IMG/VR virus record: IMGVR_UViG_3300045988_001523
DNA length: 5,721 nt
Origin: a virus
Direction: 5' to 3' (one strand)
Shown: one piece after another, positions 56 through 5,721 of the stretch
How positions within the stretch are numbered: the first letter of the stretch is position 1
How the letters are laid out: every line of letters begins with the position of its first letter
Notes under the pieces: model-generated
The model's input: the letters and a program-made list of their open reading frames with translations, nothing else
Databases searched by the model: none
Told to the model about the DNA's origin: nothing
Translations under genes and position numbers: made by a program

Positions 56-851
56 TCGTCACGTTCTTCATGATCTGTTCCATTTGTTCTGCCTGCTCCC
101 ATTTTCCGTATTCTTTTGCCGTGTTTATGGTCTGCATGGCGTTGTTCAAAAATTGGCTTGTGTTGTTTCCGTAGTCGTACATGCTTTGCATGGTCGCCGT
201 GTGTGCTGCCGGAATGCTTTGTGCTTGCGTGTGGCTGTATGTCTGGCTGCTGATGCTTCCATAGCCGCCGTTTGGCGTGCTCGCTCCGTAGCCGTTATAG
301 GCTGTTAACACCGGGTTTAAGCCTGCTGCTTTCAGATCTGCCACGCCACGCTGGTAACTGGTATTGCTCATTTTTTCTTCCCAGTTCCGTTGTGCTGCTG
401 CTTCCTGTGAGTTGTACTTTCTTGCGCTTGCCTGACTTGCCGCGTTCATGGCATTTGCAAAAAGGTTGCTCCCAAGATTCAGCAGATTTCCAAGGCTCCA
501 TTGTCCGGTTTGCAGGTTGTTTGCTGTCGCTGCCTGACCTGCGTTGAAGTTTGCTGCCTCACCTGCGTTGTTTCCGGTCGGTGTTCCCAGTGCATCTTTC
601 AGGATTCCTGCAATTCCGCCGATGCTTCCCATGTTCATGCTGCTGCCACTGCTCGTGGTGCTGCCTGTCGTGGTTGTTCCACTGGTCGTTGTGCCGGTTG
701 TTCCTGTGGTAGTCGTGCCGGTTGTTTGGTTCATGCTTCCTTGGTTGAATGCGCTGGAACTGTTGCCTATTTTATTGATTATGCTACTTCCTAGGCTTCC
801 AGCTGCGCTTATGCCTGCCGTGATGGCCGGTAGCCATTCCAAGAGTGCCAT
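1..851 (-). CDS. VP2: VP2 DNA pilot / minor capsid protein, N-terminal 283 codons (continues across the circular junction)
   Basis: ATG at 851..849 (minus) with GGGAGG at 865..860, 8 nt upstream, and 16 nt after the VP1 stop. I checked every codon of this frame from 851 down to position 1 and found no stop. The ORF is missing from the track because it leaves the window. It translates as [29 protein letters not shown]..., then a Thr/Gly/Ser tract, then ...[34 protein letters not shown]. That last stretch is the conserved core I recognise from gokushovirus VP2 proteins. Confidence 0.85.
639..725 (-). repeat. Low-complexity Thr/Gly/Ser-coding tract inside VP2
   Basis: VP2 residues ~43-71 read [29 protein letters not shown], encoded by reiterated ACN/GGN/AGY codons. 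The antisense of this tract produces the spurious hydrophobic plus-strand ORF 544..945. Confidence 0.8.
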
Positions 852-867
852 TCATTTGTCCTCCCGT

Positions 868-2553
868 TTAGATTGTATCGAGGCCCGGAATACTGTAGAT
901 CGGCATAGGACGTGTCCACGTCTGATCGTAGTACAGGTTTACTAAGAACTGATGGCTGTTCGAGCTCTGAACCGCAATTGTTCGGTCGATGTTCTCGGTA
1001 CCTTCCTGTATCCAGCTGCTGCTCAAGGTCGGAAGCTGTGTGTACTTGTCCGCATAGTGCCATGCGTCCAAGGTCTGAGCGTAGGTGCTCCGCATTTCGC
1101 CAGTGATCTGGTTCGTGCGGTACCTGTAGTCGGCCCACGCTTCCTGGTACCCAAAGACCTCTTCATCTTTGGCGTTCCCCTGTGCATAGATCTCTTGATT
1201 GAGTACTGCCTGTTCTCCCAGATTTGCAAGCATCGGGTCATAGTAACTGAATCTCGTGCTTCTGGTCCACAGTCGGCTGAGGCCCTGCTGATAGCTGTGA
1301 TCTACTCGGATTGCTGCCAGTCCGATGACATAGCCGTGCTCGGTTGCGCTGTAGGTGCACATGTTCCGGCTCATCGTCGTCATACTGTATGCACCGGTGT
1401 TGCCCTGCGGGCTCGTGCTGTCCGTTGCACTGGTCTGCACCACCTGATTGACGTTGATAGGCATCCTGTAGCCGCCGATGTACTCACTCCGGTCAAGTCG
1501 TGCGTCCGGACTGGTCACACCCCATGCACCCTGCAAGATTTCTTTGTACCGGGTGCCGGTTCTGGCGTCACGCTCGAAGATGTGTTGTACTGCGATCGCC
1601 TGCCGGAGTTCGTTGATCGTTGCCGCCGTTACGCTGCTGAGGTCTGCACCCATGTATGCCTTTTGACTGTAATTTCCGTTGTCGTAGTCGGTCTGCCCTG
1701 CCGTTTTGCTTGCCCAGAAATAGTTGCCTGTACTGTTGAACGGGTACCCTTCCAGCATTTTCGCGTTTTCGGCATCGGTTACCATGCTTCCGTATTCCCA
1801 CGCTCCGGCCTTTGCTCCTGATACTGTTCCGTAGCTTTTTGCTTCTTTTGTCAGTGCGGTGTCGATGAATGCTCGCACCGGTGCGTTGCCTCCAAGCGGG
1901 ATCGTCACCGGATCAACTGCTTTTTGCGGCGACGGCAAACAGCTTGTGAAGTAATCTTTGTACTTGCATACTTTCAGCGGCATGCCGCCTTTTTCGGCGT
2001 CGCTCAGGCTCGTGCCCGTGTTGCTGCCTGCGGTCGTTGCGTCGCTTTTGCTCATGGTCACCGGCTGTTGCAAGTTTTCATCCCGGAACCACTCGTTCCA
2101 CACTTTGCAGTATGCCCGGAACGGCATTGAGTTCACGCTCAGGTTTGGTACTCCGGTCGGAATGCCGAAATAGTCTGCCAGTGTGCCAACATTCCAGCCG
2201 CCGCTCGGTGCAGTCGTCTGCGGCGTGGTGTATTCCGTTGCTTCTGCCCAAAACGTTTTGTCGTTCTGGCCCATGAGATTTTCAAAGTGCTCCCACAGCA
2301 GGCGTGCCGGTACGAAGAAGAAATAGTAGTCCATATACGCATTATCCATGACCGGATAAAGCGGCGTGGACATTCGCGCCAATGCGTTCACGTTCACTTT
2401 GAAGGTATCTGCCGGTAACACCTCATCAAGATAAATGGGGACCAAATCGCCCTCGTTGATGGTCGTCAAAAGACTGTAGTCTCGTTTGAATCTTGCTCGC
2501 CGGATTTCTGCGTGTGGCACCTGACTATAGTGCTGCTCACTGTTTCTGTTCAT
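868..2553 (-). CDS. VP1: Major capsid protein VP1 (Microviridae F-protein family)
   Basis: 561-aa ORF with ATG at 2553 and GAGGTG 7 nt upstream. The N-terminus (...SQVPHAEIRRARFKRDYSLLTTINEGDLVPIYLDEVLPADTF...MSTPLYPVMDNAYMDYYFFFVPARLLW) has the typical gokushovirus VP1 pattern. Size and position (after the scaffold gene, before VP2) fit. Confidence 0.95.
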   Translation of the reverse strand: MNRNSEQHYSQVPHAEIRRARFKRDYSLLTTINEGDLVPIYLDEVLPADTFKVNVNALARMSTPLYPVMDNAYMDYYFFFVPARLLWEHFENLMGQNDKTFWAEATEYTTPQTTAPSGGWNVGTLADYFGIPTGVPNLSVNSMPFRAYCKVWNEWFRDENLQQPVTMSKSDATTAGSNTGTSLSDAEKGGMPLKVCKYKDYFTSCLPSPQKAVDPVTIPLGGNAPVRAFIDTALTKEAKSYGTVSGAKAGAWEYGSMVTDAENAKMLEGYPFNSTGNYFWASKTAGQTDYDNGNYSQKAYMGADLSSVTAATINELRQAIAVQHIFERDARTGTRYKEILQGAWGVTSPDARLDRSEYIGGYRMPINVNQVVQTSATDSTSPQGNTGAYSMTTMSRNMCTYSATEHGYVIGLAAIRVDHSYQQGLSRLWTRSTRFSYYDPMLANLGEQAVLNQEIYAQGNAKDEEVFGYQEAWADYRYRTNQITGEMRSTYAQTLDAWHYADKYTQLPTLSSSWIQEGTENIDRTIAVQSSNSHQFLVNLYYDQTWTRPMPIYSIPGLDTI

Positions 2554-3052: not shown

Positions 3053-3284
3053 GTTTCTTCTCCTCCTCAAGGTTATAGACCAGCTGCGGCACGCACGGAT
3101 TGATTGCGCCGGTTTCGTTGTCGTAGGTACCCATCAGATAGATGCGCTTGTCGTCGCAGTCTGCCGGTTCGTTCTCCTGCATCAGCCACTTAAAAGTGCG
3201 CTGGGCCACCTTTTCGTTTACCACCATTAGGTTTGCAAAGGTTCCTGCCAGTTCGTCCTTGATAGAATACAGATTGAAAGTCAT
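3033..3284 (-). CDS. Small non-structural protein, VP5-like by size, position and N-terminal pattern
   Basis: 83-aa ORF with ATG at 3284 and AAGGAG upstream (agaaaggagaacaacaATG). Its N-terminus (MTFNLYSIKDELAGTFANLMVVNEKVAQRTFKWL) resembles the M..F.I.D.K...F..P......A.R.F pattern of small gokushovirus proteins encoded just upstream of VP3. It overlaps the VP3 start by 20 nt. Confidence 0.55.
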   Translation of the reverse strand: MTFNLYSIKDELAGTFANLMVVNEKVAQRTFKWLMQENEPADCDDKRIYLMGTYDNETGAINPCVPQLVYNLEEEKKHAGKNL

Positions 3285-3299
3285 TGTTGTTCTCCTTTC

Positions 3300-3419
3300 T
3301 TACAGGCGGATGCCGCCCCGGCTCGGTTTCGGGCTGATGTTGATTTTTTTCGTTTTCTTTGCCGTGTTCGTGAAAACACGTTTGTCGGTTTTTGGATTTA
3401 CGGTGCTTCTGTGTGCCAT
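3300..3419 (-). CDS. 39-aa highly basic protein, probable DNA-binding/packaging protein (phiX174 J / gokushovirus ORF8 analogue)
   Basis: Hand translation gives MAHRSTVNPKTDKRVFTNTAKKTKKINISPKPSRGGIRL, with stop TAA at 3302..3300. GAGGT lies 6 nt upstream of the ATG at 3419. It has 11 Lys/Arg in 39 residues and sits tightly between flanking genes. It is below the ORF-track size cut-off. Confidence 0.6.
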   Translation of the reverse strand: MAHRSTVNPKTDKRVFTNTAKKTKKINISPKPSRGGIRL

Positions 3420-3428
3420 GTTCTTACC

Positions 3429-3515
3429 TCACTTGTCCACGGTTGCGTGATAGATCTCATCAAGGATTGCGAGAATCTTCTTCAGCATCTCCATAATCTG
3501 CTTGATATCTGCCAT
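3429..3515 (-). CDS. 28-aa micro-ORF, amphipathic helical peptide, function unknown
   Basis: Hand translation gives MADIKQIMEMLKKILAILDEIYHATVDK, with stop TGA at 3431..3429. The ATG at 3515 directly abuts the peptidase stop (TAAATG), and GGGGGTGGAG lies just upstream. The ORF fills the gap to the next gene exactly. Confidence 0.4.
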   Translation of the reverse strand: MADIKQIMEMLKKILAILDEIYHATVDK

Positions 3516-3926
3516 TTACTCCACCCCCTTTCTGTATCGTTCGGTGCTGCGCACGTCTACGTGCACAAAGTTGGTATATCTGATAACGCCGCCAGCATCT
3601 CCTAATGCTTTACTTGCGTATTCAGCCACTTCTTTGCTGGTATGGCCTTTGACCTGTATGTCTGCTGCCATGCCTTTCATGTGATAGCTCAGCGGTCGGC
3701 CGCCGACTGCTTTGTTGTGTGCCGGTGTTCTGTATGCGCTGGTGATCGTCACCGGTTCGTTGAAGTGTACACGGATGATCTCCAGCAGCTTTACCAGTGC
3801 TTTTGCAATGATGATAGGTTCGCTGCCGTCTTTGCAGGCATATTCCCTGTACTTAAAGTGCGTAGATACGTTGTTTTTACCATCTTCGGTTCTGGTTGTC
3901 ACAATCATCTCTCTGGTTTCTGCCAT
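3516..3926 (-). CDS. Zn-dependent peptidoglycan peptidase, Peptidase_M15 (M15_3 / D-Ala-D-Ala carboxypeptidase-like) family; candidate endolysin
   Basis: The track ORF starts at GTG 3935. I prefer ATG 3926, which has GAGGTG 6 nt upstream and gives 136 aa. Motifs include ITSAYRTPAHNKAVGGRPLSYHMKGMAADI, which carries the H-x6-D metal ligands (SYHMKGMAAD), and FVHVDVR, which carries the third His. These match the SxYR...N..vGG...S.H..G.A.D ... H.D signature of M15 peptidases. I see no N-terminal signal peptide or TM segment. Confidence 0.85.
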   Translation of the reverse strand: MAETREMIVTTRTEDGKNNVSTHFKYREYACKDGSEPIIIAKALVKLLEIIRVHFNEPVTITSAYRTPAHNKAVGGRPLSYHMKGMAADIQVKGHTSKEVAEYASKALGDAGGVIRYTNFVHVDVRSTERYRKGVE

Positions 3927-3945
3927 TTGTATCACCTCTGGTTGT

Positions 3946-3972
3946 ATTGTAGCATAAAAAAAAAAACGTCAA
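3946..3972 (-). promoter_or_regulatory. Candidate sigma70-type promoter for the peptidase/structural (late) gene block
   Basis: The minus strand reads TTGACG (3972..3967), a 15-nt spacer (T11 + ATGC), then TACAAT (3951..3946). The TG of TGCTACAAT sits in extended -10 position. The element lies ~20 nt upstream of the peptidase ATG. The spacer is short, so this is tentative. Confidence 0.4.
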
Positions 3973-3987
3973 GCTGTTCGCTTAACG
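3956..3987 (-). terminator. Rho-independent terminator downstream of VP4
   Basis: The minus-strand transcript reads CGUUAAGC-GAACA-GCUUGACG. This is an 8-bp stem including one U-G wobble, with a 5-nt loop (3987..3967). A run of 11 U follows immediately (3966..3956). Confidence 0.7.
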
Positions 3988-3999
3988 TTTTGGTGGGTA

Positions 4000-4094: not shown

Positions 4095-5192
4095 TTAAAT
4101 TTCTTCCCGAATCAGTTTCTTCATCCTGTCTTGCATTGCTTTGTCTTTTGCGGTATAGTATTCTTGCATGTTTAAGCCGGTCTGTTGTAGCTGTGCAAAG
4201 AGTGCATCATTTGCGATTCTTCGACGTTCTCGCTTGATGGCTCTCAGCTCTTCAGATTCGGCTTTTACTATTGTGTCTTCTATACCTGTTGTTTCTGCTT
4301 CGCTTAGTGGTGCGCTGTTGCTGTGTTCCAGATCAAACAGTTTATCAAAGTATCTTGGAGGTTTACACGTTTTTCCGTTTGCTAGTTGGATGCTATCTTT
4401 TGCATAGATTTCATCTTTGTGCTCAAAATAGTACCGCTGTCCGATTCCTTTACTCATCATGCAGCGTTCTGGTGTGATTCCTAGTTCTTGGTAATACTCT
4501 TGTCCCGCTTTGCCGTACACCTTTTTCGTGGTGTATCGTGCGGTGTATGCCATGTTTTTCCACTCTGCTGCTGCTATGACCACATGTCCCATGCCCCAGA
4601 GCTTTGTTATCCAATCTACATTGTAGTAAGTATATCCTTTCTCTTTTTTGTATGTTTTGAGTTCGTCTTGCTGTATTGGTAGGCTATACACGATCGCATG
4701 ATAGTGTGGTCTATGTGTTTTGCTGCCGTATTCGCCAGCTTGGAAATACATCAGTGCTTCCTGATTCCTCTTGTGGTATTCTAGCCAGCGTCTCAGCCTT
4801 TTCCAGAACTTCTGCATGTCCTCGTCGCACAGGCTCAGATTCTCGGTTATGACTTCTCCTGTTAGTTTGTCGTATGTGTATCGGTATGGAACGTGCTCGT
4901 TGTCGTAGGTGAGAGTTAAAAACCATGCGTTCTTGTGGTATGGCAGCTCCATTTCCATTCTGTTTGCCCAGCTGGAAGAGTTTTGCAGTTTGCACCCTGT
5001 GCACTGTCCGCATGGTATGAGCTGTGCTTCGTCTAATCTGAGCATGTTTAACAGTTCGCTTTCTTGGCTTACGATCTCTATACCGTCGATGATGATTCCA
5101 TTTTTCCGTGTATGTTCATCACTCCATAGGTATTTTTTCAGACTGGTTATCTGTCCGTTTTTGAACCGGACTAAAGGTTTTGTGCACCCCAT
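4095..5192 (-). CDS. VP4: Replication initiation protein VP4 (HUH rolling-circle endonuclease, phiX174 gpA-like)
   Basis: Motifs present are FLTLTY (RCR motif 1), RPHYHAIVY (HUH motif) and AYTARYTTKK (paired catalytic Tyr, Y-x3-Y). There is also the PCGQCTGCK cysteine cluster usual near the N-terminus of gokushovirus VP4. The track starts the ORF at TTG 5264. I prefer ATG 5192 (MGCTKPLVRF..., 365 aa), with GGAAGGAG ending 12 nt upstream. ATG 5228 is an alternative, but it lies inside the 16-bp hairpin. Confidence 0.93.
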   Translation of the reverse strand: MGCTKPLVRFKNGQITSLKKYLWSDEHTRKNGIIIDGIEIVSQESELLNMLRLDEAQLIPCGQCTGCKLQNSSSWANRMEMELPYHKNAWFLTLTYDNEHVPYRYTYDKLTGEVITENLSLCDEDMQKFWKRLRRWLEYHKRNQEALMYFQAGEYGSKTHRPHYHAIVYSLPIQQDELKTYKKEKGYTYYNVDWITKLWGMGHVVIAAAEWKNMAYTARYTTKKVYGKAGQEYYQELGITPERCMMSKGIGQRYYFEHKDEIYAKDSIQLANGKTCKPPRYFDKLFDLEHSNSAPLSEAETTGIEDTIVKAESEELRAIKRERRRIANDALFAQLQQTGLNMQEYYTAKDKAMQDRMKKLIREEI

Positions 5193-5564: not shown

Positions 5565-5721
5565 TATTTTTTGCCTTTCTTTGTGCTGAAATCTCCGTGG
5601 ACTTTTCCACTGACGTTCGTGTTTTTGCCTGTTTCGGTGCTGCTGCTTCTTTCGGTTCCGGTTCCGGTGCTGCTCCCGCGGTCTGTCCGTGCTATATCTT
5701 CTACGGTTCTTGCACTGCTTG
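5564..5721 (-). CDS. VP2: VP2 C-terminal end (same gene as 1..851; 5667..5721 duplicates 1..55)
   Basis: The VP2 frame continues through the repeat as ...RGSSTGTGTERSSSTETGKNTNVSGKVHGDFSTKKGKK, with stop TAA at 5566..5564. On the 5,666-nt circle this gives a single 317-codon gene. Confidence 0.8.
   Translation of the reverse strand, partial: SSARTVEDIARTDRGSSTGTGTERSSSTETGKNTNVSGKVHGDFSTKKGKK
5667..5721. repeat. Terminal direct repeat, copy B (circular-genome assembly overlap)
   Basis: Exact 55-nt duplicate of 1..55. This implies a circular unit of 5,666 nt. Confidence 0.95.

Follow-up and report, generated by a model that had tools for sequence, protein, structure and literature searches.

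How does a cell-wall peptidase encoded by a microvirus reach the peptidoglycan when it carries no export signal and no holin stands beside it? The question is raised by a 136-aa protein encoded in the window, as we call the whole stretch of 5,721 nucleotides analysed here (IMG/VR record IMGVR_UViG_3300045988_001523), which represents a complete circular gokushovirus of 5,666 nt. In phiX174, protein E accomplishes lysis as a single gene product by inhibiting MraY. The window resembles that case in having a microvirus lysis function without a holin-endolysin pair, but E is a small overprinted transmembrane (TM) protein with no enzymatic activity, whereas the protein studied here is a soluble predicted hydrolase. 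The reading that we favour, to which we assign a probability of about 0.55, is that the peptidase is an accessory endolysin acting after a membrane-breaching step encoded by the viral backbone.

The earlier note on this DNA implied that an M15 peptidase in a microvirus was a novelty, which is not the case. Peptidases of the M15_3 family were reported in 2012 in Gokushovirinae and Alpavirinae of the human gut, where they were read as horizontally acquired endolysins and linked to Faecalibacterium and other Clostridiales (Roux et al., PLoS One; PMC3394797), and later papers have repeated the endolysin reading (PMC7062461; PMC9239249; PMC11499846). Pfam family, viral subfamily, habitat and proposed role are the same in the 2012 peptidases, and nothing essential differs, so that the window adds a further member to a group of microviral M15_3 endolysins already known. 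GenBank gokushoviruses carry proteins annotated 'peptidase M15' that are 47-59% identical to the peptidase of the window. What is examined here beyond the 2012 study is the clade-wide absence of a TM partner and the coupling of the gene to a micro-ORF.

The coordinates of the relevant features are given in Table 1. The ends of the peptidase gene are exact on the minus strand (ATG at 3926-3924, TAA at 3518-3516), and ATG 3926 is likely to be the true start, because the alternative GTG at 3935 falls within the Shine-Dalgarno sequence AGAGGTGA. The terminator-like hairpin with its T-run, its extent being read either as 3991-3963 or, as in Table 1, as 3953..3991, separates the rep gene (VP4) from the peptidase gene and could be the boundary of a transcription unit. 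This position fits the proposal of the earlier note that the peptidase is the first gene of a late block, and by gene order it belongs with the structural genes in one block, but when the region ahead of the peptidase was scanned for promoters, no sigma-70 consensus turned up. A TTGACG...TACAAT pair spotted by eye in the search for a promoter was rejected, its spacer being just 14 nt. For the 39-aa basic protein of the same block no match to a Pfam, PHROG or NCBIfam model is on record; its position and composition recall the small DNA-binding ORF8/J-like protein of gokushoviruses.

Table 1. Features of the peptidase locus and of VP2, with positions in the window
Feature	Position	Strand	Remarks
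M15_3 peptidase CDS, stand-alone catalytic domain	3516..3926	(-)	136 aa + stop; predicted M15A-type, LAS-fold, zinc
Shine-Dalgarno AGAGGTGA of peptidase	3932..3939	(-)	5 nt upstream of ATG 3926; read from sequence
Shine-Dalgarno AAGGGGGTGG of micro-ORF	3521..3530	(-)	within the last codons of the peptidase (YRKGVE)
28-aa micro-ORF MADIKQIMEMLKKILAILDEIYHATVDK	3429..3515	(-)	predicted amphipathic helix; ATG abuts peptidase stop; core L-D-x-I-Y-H
39-aa highly basic protein ending SRGGIRL	3300..3419	(-)	next gene in block; conserved in every related locus
Terminator-like hairpin (12-pair stem) + T-run	3953..3991	(-)	terminator scan and sequence; consensus match only
VP2 (pilot protein) N-terminal Gly/Ala-rich, weakly hydrophobic segment	765..851	(-)	mean Kyte-Doolittle 1.37 over 19 residues

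The assignment of the protein to the M15 family, made in the earlier note from its zinc-ligand signature, was borne out by profile searches. Pfam model PF08291 (Peptidase_M15_3) matches the protein with 87 bits (E=1.1e-24; cut-off 23.2), the match spanning residues 27-127 and profile positions 3-108 of 108, and there are further matches to PF05951 (E=1.7e-9) and to PHROG 894, 'endolysin' (E=1.1e-36). The motifs H82-x6-D89 (in SYHMKGMAAD) and H122-V-D124 (in FVHVDVR) are present, and their residues H82, D89, H122 and D124, putatively metal-binding or catalytic, are kept without exception in alignments of 21 and of 48 homologues. Judged by its sequence, then, the 136-aa protein is an M15 cell-wall peptidase with intact catalytic residues. 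The equivalog model of MepK, a peptidoglycan L,D-endopeptidase (NCBIfam NF053624), scores 42.8 bits against a cut-off of 185, and this sub-threshold score indicates a related catalytic core only. More than 1,600 clusters of homologues were found, mostly on contigs of about 5.6 kb; among the 120 closest, 119 are 125-169 aa long and one has 212 aa, and fusion to VP2 occurs in none of them.

A direct sequence search of the PDB with the peptidase gave no match, but the family profile reaches the M15A archetype 1LBU, the zinc D-Ala-D-Ala carboxypeptidase of Streptomyces albus G, with E=2e-8 across the H-x6-D region, and this stretch of the peptidase aligns with the corresponding stretch of 1LBU. 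The AF2 model, built from an alignment of database proteins only, without rows from GenBank loci, has a pLDDT of 89.5 and a pTM of 0.85, with pLDDT values below 50 for tail residues 132-136. In a Foldseek search of the PDB this model found 1LBU as its best match (E=2.5e-4), followed by the N-terminal domains of hedgehog proteins, likewise of the LAS fold, and by VanY, while neighbours in BFVD labelled 'Peptidase M15A' superpose on it with TM scores of 0.85-0.87. The predicted structure is confident and of the LAS-type alpha/beta fold. 1LBU, the best solved match by both profile and fold, is only about 20% identical and, with 213 residues, some 80 residues longer; this bacterial enzyme is secreted and has an additional domain at its N-terminus.

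The nearest homologues in tailed phages are the annotated endolysins of the Faecalibacterium phages FP_oengus, FP_Toutatis and Lelie, which are about 46% identical over the whole catalytic domain and, at 137-138 aa and without a signal peptide, are similar to the peptidase of the window. There are two differences. In FP_oengus and FP_Toutatis the endolysin is directly followed by genes with clear TM segments, of which one carries a holin annotation (mean Kyte-Doolittle 2.57-2.59), whereas the window has no such gene. In addition, the C-terminal tail, SRWKG or SRWVS in the tailed phages, is YRKGVE in the window, where it doubles as a ribosome-binding site. Tailed phages also carry larger versions: the BFVD neighbours with 46-47% identity are 'Peptidase' proteins of 341-349 aa, and the microviral protein matches only their catalytic domain.

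The missing export route was examined by Kyte-Doolittle hydropathy in windows of 19 residues, a mean of at least 1.5 being counted as TM-grade. The N-terminus of the peptidase, MAETREMIVTTRTEDGKNN, is charged, and hydropathy revealed no signal peptide or SAR segment on the protein; its most hydrophobic window (residues 40-58, mean 1.48) contains K, K, E and R and forms a core helix in the AF2 model. Stop-to-stop segments in all three coding-strand frames, with any start codon allowed, contained no TM-grade window, nor did any coding-strand frame hold a small overprinted TM protein of the phiX174 E type. Thus the statements of the earlier note that the enzyme has no signal peptide or SAR-like N-terminus and that no ORF has a convincing TM segment stood up, and the overprinted E-like gene that it named as a possible counterexample was not found. 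Measured against a canonical holin-endolysin system, the locus has the endolysin homology and lacks the holin and the signal or SAR sequence. Across the whole proteome, hydrophobicity is highest in the peptidase core helix and in the N-terminus of VP2, whose gene wraps across the end of the 5,666-nt circle. The earlier note had named this VP2 segment as a possible releasing partner, but with a mean of 1.37 its hydrophobicity is weak; in relatives the VP2 N-terminus reaches mean values of 1.3-1.7, and we regard this segment as a candidate membrane-active element.

It could be argued that a membrane partner exists and was overlooked, being encoded on the complementary strand or from a non-canonical start, or supplied by the host as a holin-like protein. 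There are some observations of this kind: one complementary-strand ORF beside a microviral peptidase has been described (PMC3394797), TM mini-ORFs occur after VP2 in Clostridia prophages, and stand-alone TM mini-ORFs occur in one of the 108 peptidase-bearing relatives (L011) and in relatives without a peptidase (L180, L166 and L123). Nevertheless, the three-frame scan was empty regardless of start codon, and the slot that the TM mini-ORFs of relatives occupy, between the basic protein and VP5, measures merely 15 nt in the window. Hydrophobic ORFs do appear on the opposite strand, where they arise from its T-richness, and as hidden holins they were rejected, given that stop codons interrupt their frames in most of 38 relatives. 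We consider an overlooked partner improbable. We also asked whether peptidase and TM mini-ORF exclude each other as alternative lysis modules, as the raw counts suggested (1/108 genomes with a peptidase versus 14/71 without; Fisher p=1e-5), but the effect was lost when genomes were clustered at 80% VP1 identity, with TM mini-ORFs in 1/25 clusters with a peptidase and 2/11 without.

If there is no partner at all, the peptidase could itself be the complete lysis system, working from within the cell. A cytoplasmic enzyme would destroy soluble precursors, either D-Ala-D-Ala or UDP-MurNAc-pentapeptide, transpeptidation would be starved and growing cells would burst, in functional parallel to phiX174 E although by a different mechanism. 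The absence of a signal peptide, SAR segment and TM partner here, and of a TM partner in 107 of the 108 peptidase-bearing relatives, would be accounted for, and the nearest solved homologue, 1LBU, was deposited as 'muramoyl-pentapeptide carboxypeptidase', an enzyme that takes the last D-Ala off the pentapeptide stem. A precedent for a zinc peptidase acting without export is VanX, which cleaves D-Ala-D-Ala in the cytoplasm and is of the same peptidase clan as the M15 enzyme, although it belongs to another subfamily and accepts only the dipeptide. According to a review (PMC11514776, citing Sohya et al. 2014), overexpressed soluble VanX lyses E. coli without a facilitating protein. On the other hand, the tailed-phage endolysins with 46% identity, which are accompanied by holins, must build up in the cytoplasm without premature lysis, the profiles that the family matches describe endolysins and murein endopeptidases (PHROG 894 and, weakly, the NCBIfam MepK model), and there is no sign in the sequence of a changed specificity. 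We consider lysis from within unlikely.

The micro-ORF immediately downstream of the peptidase deserves separate consideration, since the earlier note proposed it as a partner releasing the enzyme; among the peptidase genes of the 2012 study, 5 of 11 have an adjacent ORF with no assigned function (PMC3394797). In microviral relatives it starts 2-7 nt past the peptidase stop, and the nucleotides TACAGAAAGGGGGT(G/A) before that stop are kept in 18 of 19 of them, the exception being L005 with GGGGAAC. Its pN/pS of 0.39 points to purifying selection, and the codons of the invariant D, I, Y and H residues vary synonymously. Its hydrophobic moment is 0.64, a value reached by 0.3% of shuffled sequences, within a range of 0.62-0.70 for the peptide. 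By these features of sequence and position, the micro-ORF qualifies as a real gene translationally coupled to the peptidase. It was found in 19/19 loci selected for the peptidase and in 34/34 peptidase-bearing genomes of a set selected by VP1.

Such a peptide might serve the peptidase by taking over a holin's task of disturbing the membrane, or by escorting the enzyme, for which Gp1 of mycobacteriophage Ms6, a chaperone-like protein that helps LysA to reach the wall, would be the model. The abutting start, the Shine-Dalgarno sequence inside the last peptidase codons, the strict co-occurrence with the peptidase in the VP1-selected set, the purifying selection and the strong amphipathicity all fit this idea. 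However, the micro-ORF is also present in 24/39 related genomes that have no peptidase, and a motif scan found it without a peptidase at 39/116 loci, in a search whose pattern fixed Ala after His and therefore under-sampled variants with Ile at that position. In some genomes, moreover, the peptidase lies 80-420 nt from the micro-ORF or downstream of it. The peptides, acidic to neutral with net charges of -5 to +1 and no TM-grade hydrophobicity, are unlike known holins, disruptins and cationic lytic peptides, and their invariant D-x-I-Y-H core points more to contact with a particular protein than to a generic membrane activity. A search led by a 47-aa member of the family returned 1,735 clusters of homologues, all named 'hypothetical protein [Microviridae]' or without a name. 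Because it occurs in so many peptidase-less genomes, the micro-ORF appears from its distribution to be a backbone gene of a large microvirus family and not a dedicated endolysin partner; the co-occurrence counts rule out a peptidase-specific role, and a functional partnership of the broader kind is doubtful. The earlier proposal that this peptide releases the enzyme is accordingly not sustained.

The distribution of the peptidase itself is informative. With database cluster P0001 the window shares 94% identity, and with IMG/VR locus L001 97%. The peptidase is present in 108 of 179 sampled genomes, yet in only 7 of the 45 genomes that cluster with the window at a VP1 identity of at least 70%, and it is missing from the relatives whose VP1 is closest (75-78% identity). 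This comparison of genomes shows a sporadic distribution and marks the gene as accessory. As regards the host, contigs of 147-317 kb from Oscillibacter sp. PC13, Muriventricola aceti and Clostridia MAGs contain integrated relatives of VP1 with 49-51% identity, and the Oscillibacter prophage carries an M15 peptidase too; the hosts are therefore probably Clostridia.

Clostridia have a thick wall, and an enzyme packaged in a few copies with VP2 or on the virion might open it locally during DNA delivery. In tailed phages, M15A domains are indeed found within tail or baseplate proteins of very large size (510-1191 aa), and the gene shares its block with structural genes. There is also a microviral example in Ebor, a member of the 'Tainavirinae', whose Gp7, a wall hydrolase of about 146 aa with peptidoglycan activity verified by zymogram and plate assay, was detected in traces in virions (PMC11980548). 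Gp7 resembles the peptidase of the window in being a stand-alone wall hydrolase encoded by a microvirus, but Ebor belongs to a different subfamily, has an alphaproteobacterial host and encodes a predicted membrane protein of 45 aa (Gp1), of which the window has no counterpart (PMC11980548). Against an entry function, the peptidase is a stand-alone protein with no structural fusion, its closest homologues have 125-212 aa, outside the microviruses the nearest relatives are endolysins of lysis cassettes, and close relatives with the same capsid backbone lack the gene, which therefore is not essential for entry in this group. The suggestion of the earlier note that the enzyme is associated with entry found little in its favour beyond the M15A domains of the large tail-associated proteins, and we judge it highly improbable.

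The accessory endolysin reading is in line with the match to PHROG 894, with the homology to the Faecalibacterium phage endolysins, which in FP_oengus and FP_Toutatis lie next to holin-type genes, and with the patchy occurrence in the window's own cluster and among its closest VP1 relatives; the same reading was proposed for the 2012 peptidases (PMC3394797). In this scenario the gut gokushovirus lineage of the window would have captured a minimal M15A/LAS-fold peptidase, reduced to the catalytic domain, from tailed phages of Clostridia. The enzyme would be made together with the morphogenetic proteins, as suggested by the terminator-like hairpin ahead of the gene, its own Shine-Dalgarno sequence and the translational coupling to the following genes, and late in infection it would cut peptide stems or cross-links of the host peptidoglycan. 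It would be unable to cross the membrane alone and would have no canonical holin to help it. Since peptidase-less sister genomes with the same backbone presumably complete their cycle, the primary step that compromises membrane or wall is postulated to be supplied either by the shared backbone or by the host; after that step the peptidase would gain access to its substrate and make lysis faster or more complete.

Some observations do not sit easily with an accessory endolysin. The membrane-breaching step is postulated, and in relatives without the peptidase, L144 and L148 for example, neither a TM protein nor a known lysis gene is seen that might provide it. For a mere helper, retention in 108/179 genomes of tightly constrained size is surprising, and as the tailed-phage homologues have holins, the loss of the holin with the enzyme kept needs explaining. 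Furthermore, Ebor Gp7, the sole microvirus hydrolase verified biochemically, belongs to another subfamily (PMC11980548).

Gokushoviruses rank with the most abundant phages in the human gut, and no lysis gene has been identified in them (PMC7062461); in many of them the peptidase is the only recognisable lysis-related gene. Taken by itself, this genome does not go beyond the 2012 publication, but the comparative picture, in which the enzyme is retained in most sampled relatives, a membrane protein is almost never found alongside it, unlike in the holin-equipped tailed phages, the coupled micro-ORF always accompanies it and the hosts are probably Clostridia, turns the question of how the peptidase is delivered into a concrete and testable one. 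If lysis from within were true, it would explain how about 99% of the peptidase-bearing gokushoviruses do without a membrane protein and would represent a new enzymatic class of single-gene lysis, and if lysis proceeds without any partner, the gene would constitute a compact lysis module for Gram-positive anaerobes.

The gene at 3516-3926, which the earlier note had read as an M15 zinc-ligand protein, has exactly those limits (ATG 3926-3924, TAA 3518-3516; 136 aa), with a Shine-Dalgarno sequence (AGAGGTGA) 5 nt before the ATG; an alternative GTG at 3935 falls within that Shine-Dalgarno. The assignment was borne out by a profile search, in which the protein matched Pfam Peptidase_M15_3 with 87 bits (cut-off 23.2), and by the metal-ligand motifs H-x6-D (H82-D89) and H-x-D (H122, D124), which do not vary in either of two alignments (21 and 48 homologues). 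The protein also matches PHROG 894 'endolysin' (E=1e-36), the family profile matches 1LBU, the archetypal M15A zinc DD-peptidase of Streptomyces albus, over the H-x6-D stretch (E=2e-8), and the confident AlphaFold model (pLDDT 89.5) has 1LBU and hedgehog N-terminal domains as its best PDB matches, the classical LAS fold. To judge by sequence and model, the product is a zinc peptidase of the M15A type that descends from endolysins and appears to be intact; it is encoded in a block of morphogenetic genes and is very probably a lysis-related wall peptidase. It is unlikely that it works from within, on soluble precursors, a mode of action for which VanX offers a precedent (PMC11514776).

An M15 peptidase in a gut microvirus is already known and well documented, so that the novelty first attached to it has to be given up. 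Among viruses from human samples, Roux et al. 2012 (PMC3394797) found five gokushoviruses and six alpaviruses to encode M15_3 peptidases, showed that these were horizontally acquired, with closest homologues in Faecalibacterium beside holin genes, proposed an endolysin role, speculated on Gram-positive hosts and recorded an unknown ORF adjoining 5 of the 11 peptidase genes. The same view recurs in a later paper (PMC7062461). According to Kirchberger et al. 2022 (PMC9239249), microviruses have few types of accessory gene, and peptidases, which recombination moves between families, are one of them; M15 peptidases have been reported in marine Occultatumvirinae (PMC11499846), and the peptidoglycan hydrolase of microvirus Ebor, whose genome also encodes a 45-aa membrane protein, was verified biochemically by Bardy et al. 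2025 (PMC11980548). Our own searches agree with these reports: homologues form 1,658 clusters, most of the best 120 that have a complete contig lying on contigs of 5.2-6 kb, and 650 deposited phage records match, dozens of them Microviridae annotated 'peptidase M15'.

The observation that the peptidase has neither export signal nor holin was confirmed in full. Its N-terminus is charged and its most hydrophobic 19-residue stretch (mean Kyte-Doolittle 1.48) carries four charged residues and is a core helix in the model. A stop-to-stop scan of the three coding-strand frames yielded no 19-residue window with a mean Kyte-Doolittle of at least 1.5, and therefore neither a holin nor an overprinted E-like gene, whatever the start codon. 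The opposite strand holds many hydrophobic ORFs because it is T-rich, and stop codons interrupt them in most of 38 relatives. One antisense ORF, 544-945 (+), with 133 Val/Pro-rich and extremely hydrophobic residues, is mistakable for a membrane protein and was rejected as spurious; it lies opposite a Thr/Gly/Ser-rich low-complexity tract of VP2 (residues ~40-70, window ~640-730, minus strand). The peptidase is thus without a means of crossing the membrane and without a transmembrane (TM) partner; that a membrane partner is present and escaped these scans is quite unlikely.

An exact 55-nt terminal direct repeat (1-55 = 5667-5721) shows that the genome is circular and complete at 5,666 nt; all its genes lie on the A-rich minus strand in the usual gokushovirus order (Table). 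At the DNA level, the deposited phage sequence that matches it best is a fragment of VP1 that comes from human faeces (91% identity). A TTGACG...TACAAT pair around the terminator-like hairpin failed in a promoter scan, its spacer being only 14 nt. The 64-aa ORF, which may encode a small DNA-binding regulator, is conserved in the VP2-VP4 interval of relatives, among them L047, L144, L149 and L180. One related contig (L006/L070, IMGVR_UViG_3300045988_007462, 7,207 nt) is ~1.4 kb longer than the others, with an AT-rich insertion from L006 position 4354 onwards, by which the VP4 frame grows to 739 aa and in which several small hydrophobic ORFs occur; an insertion element or chimerism in the assembly could explain it.

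Table. Features of the window and of related loci (L) and protein clusters (P)
Source	Feature	Coordinates	Strand	Remark
Window	ribbon-helix-helix-like ORF	5490-5296	-	64 aa; Pfam RHH_1 E=0.024, below cut-off
Window	rep protein VP4	5264-4095	-	
Window	terminator-like hairpin	3953-3991	-	12-bp stem, then T run; between rep and peptidase
Window	M15 peptidase	3926-3516	-	136 aa
Window	28-aa ORF (micro-protein)	3515-3429	-	
Window	highly basic protein	3419-3300	-	39 aa
Window	VP5	3284-3033	-	
Window	scaffold protein VP3	3070-2537	-	
Window	capsid protein VP1	2553-868	-	
Window	pilot protein VP2	start 851	-	317 aa; spans circle junction
L004	micro-protein	534-650		
L014	micro-protein	431-535		
L047	micro-protein			without peptidase
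P0121-P0240	micro-protein			
L011	TM mini-ORF	3251-3340		29 aa; between basic protein and VP5
L180	TM mini-ORF	4576-4668		peptidase-less
L166	TM mini-ORF	2424-2507		peptidase-less
L123 (rotated)	TM mini-ORF	1889-1987		peptidase-less
L217	gokushovirus prophage	7765-12728		Oscillibacter sp. PC13, contig NZ_FOXE01000003.1
L217	M15 peptidase of prophage	8879-9262		
L224	gokushovirus prophage			Muriventricola aceti
L215, L216	gokushovirus prophages			Clostridia isolates/MAGs

In all 19 microvirus loci retrieved via the peptidase, its stop is followed after 2-7 nt by an ORF of 28-41 aa, with ATA replacing the canonical start codon in two (L011, L017), and in 18 of the 19 the final peptidase codons (YRKGV, TACAGAAAGGGGGTG) hold the Shine-Dalgarno of this ORF. 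Since this C-terminal tail is disordered in the model and different in tailed-phage homologues, it may be the nucleotide sequence that is conserved there, in the service of coupling. The micro-ORF has a pN/pS of 0.39, and its invariant D, I, Y and H are each encoded by both synonymous codons; it is a real gene, under purifying selection. Its acidic to neutral product is predicted to form a helix of strong amphipathicity (hydrophobic moment 0.62-0.70, a level that few shuffles attain), in which hydropathy detects no TM segment. The family (28-63 aa, microvirus-specific, invariant L-D-x-I-Y-H core) comprises at least 1,735 clusters, and among the best 120 almost all lie on contigs of ~6 kb or smaller and none has a Pfam domain or a name beyond 'hypothetical protein [Microviridae sp.]'.

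The proposal that this peptide is the partner of the peptidase held only in part: the gene is real and translationally coupled, but it is not peptidase-specific. In a set of 73 near-complete relatives selected solely on VP1, both genes occur in 34, the peptide without the peptidase in 24, neither gene in 15, and the peptidase without the peptide in none; likewise, a back-translated motif scan recovered 116 new micro-ORF loci, 39 of them without peptidase, all those listed being microvirus-sized. The micro-ORF is therefore a backbone gene of the lineage, directly before which the peptidase was inserted, and we consider it improbable that it is the true partner.

In 179 near-complete related genomes, a stand-alone TM mini-ORF occurs in 1 of the 108 with peptidase (L011) and in 14 of the 71 without. 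Such single-TM ORFs, which in some relatives measure 27-38 aa and separate the basic protein from VP5 (e.g. MSVLFAGITTAALASALVLVVIAIDIIKEWFK), are candidates for E-like or holin-like lysis genes in gokushoviruses; in the window this slot measures only 15 nt and holds no TM mini-ORF. Mutual exclusion of peptidase and TM mini-ORF is not claimed, as the raw contrast looks significant but vanishes on grouping at 80% VP1 identity. Of 45 genomes in the cluster to which the window belongs (VP1 identity of at least 70%), 7 have the peptidase, and the closest VP1 relatives lack peptidase, peptide and any TM protein; the peptidase is thus an accessory gene. The lack of a recognisable lysis gene characterises the group as a whole and is not peculiar to this genome.

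The nearest tailed-phage homologues are endolysins of Faecalibacterium phages FP_oengus, FP_Toutatis and Lelie (~46% identity). Predicted-structure neighbours at 46-47% identity are tailed-phage peptidases of 341-349 aa, and the microviral protein is therefore a bare catalytic domain. The genes that follow the endolysin in FP_oengus and FP_Toutatis have clear TM segments (mean Kyte-Doolittle 2.57-2.59), one being annotated as holin, whereas the window has no such gene. Long contigs of two isolates (Oscillibacter sp. PC13, Muriventricola aceti) and of several Clostridia MAGs contain integrated VP1 relatives (49-51% identity), so that Clostridia are likely hosts at the level of the clade. The Oscillibacter prophage, which a tyrosine-recombinase-like gene adjoins, carries an M15 peptidase and a 42-aa TM ORF after VP2, and several Clostridia prophages have a TM ORF of 31-50 aa beside VP2.

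We favour, with a probability of about 0.55, a reading in which the peptidase would degrade the host's wall as infection ends, once a prior step has breached or weakened the membrane. For this step, which would come from the backbone or from the host, the candidates are the Gly/Ala-rich N-terminus of VP2, the amphipathic micro-protein and factors of the host. Action of the peptidase in entry instead is very unlikely. What interest remains in this genome lies not in the presence of the peptidase but in the problem of its holin-less delivery and in the unnamed micro-protein family.
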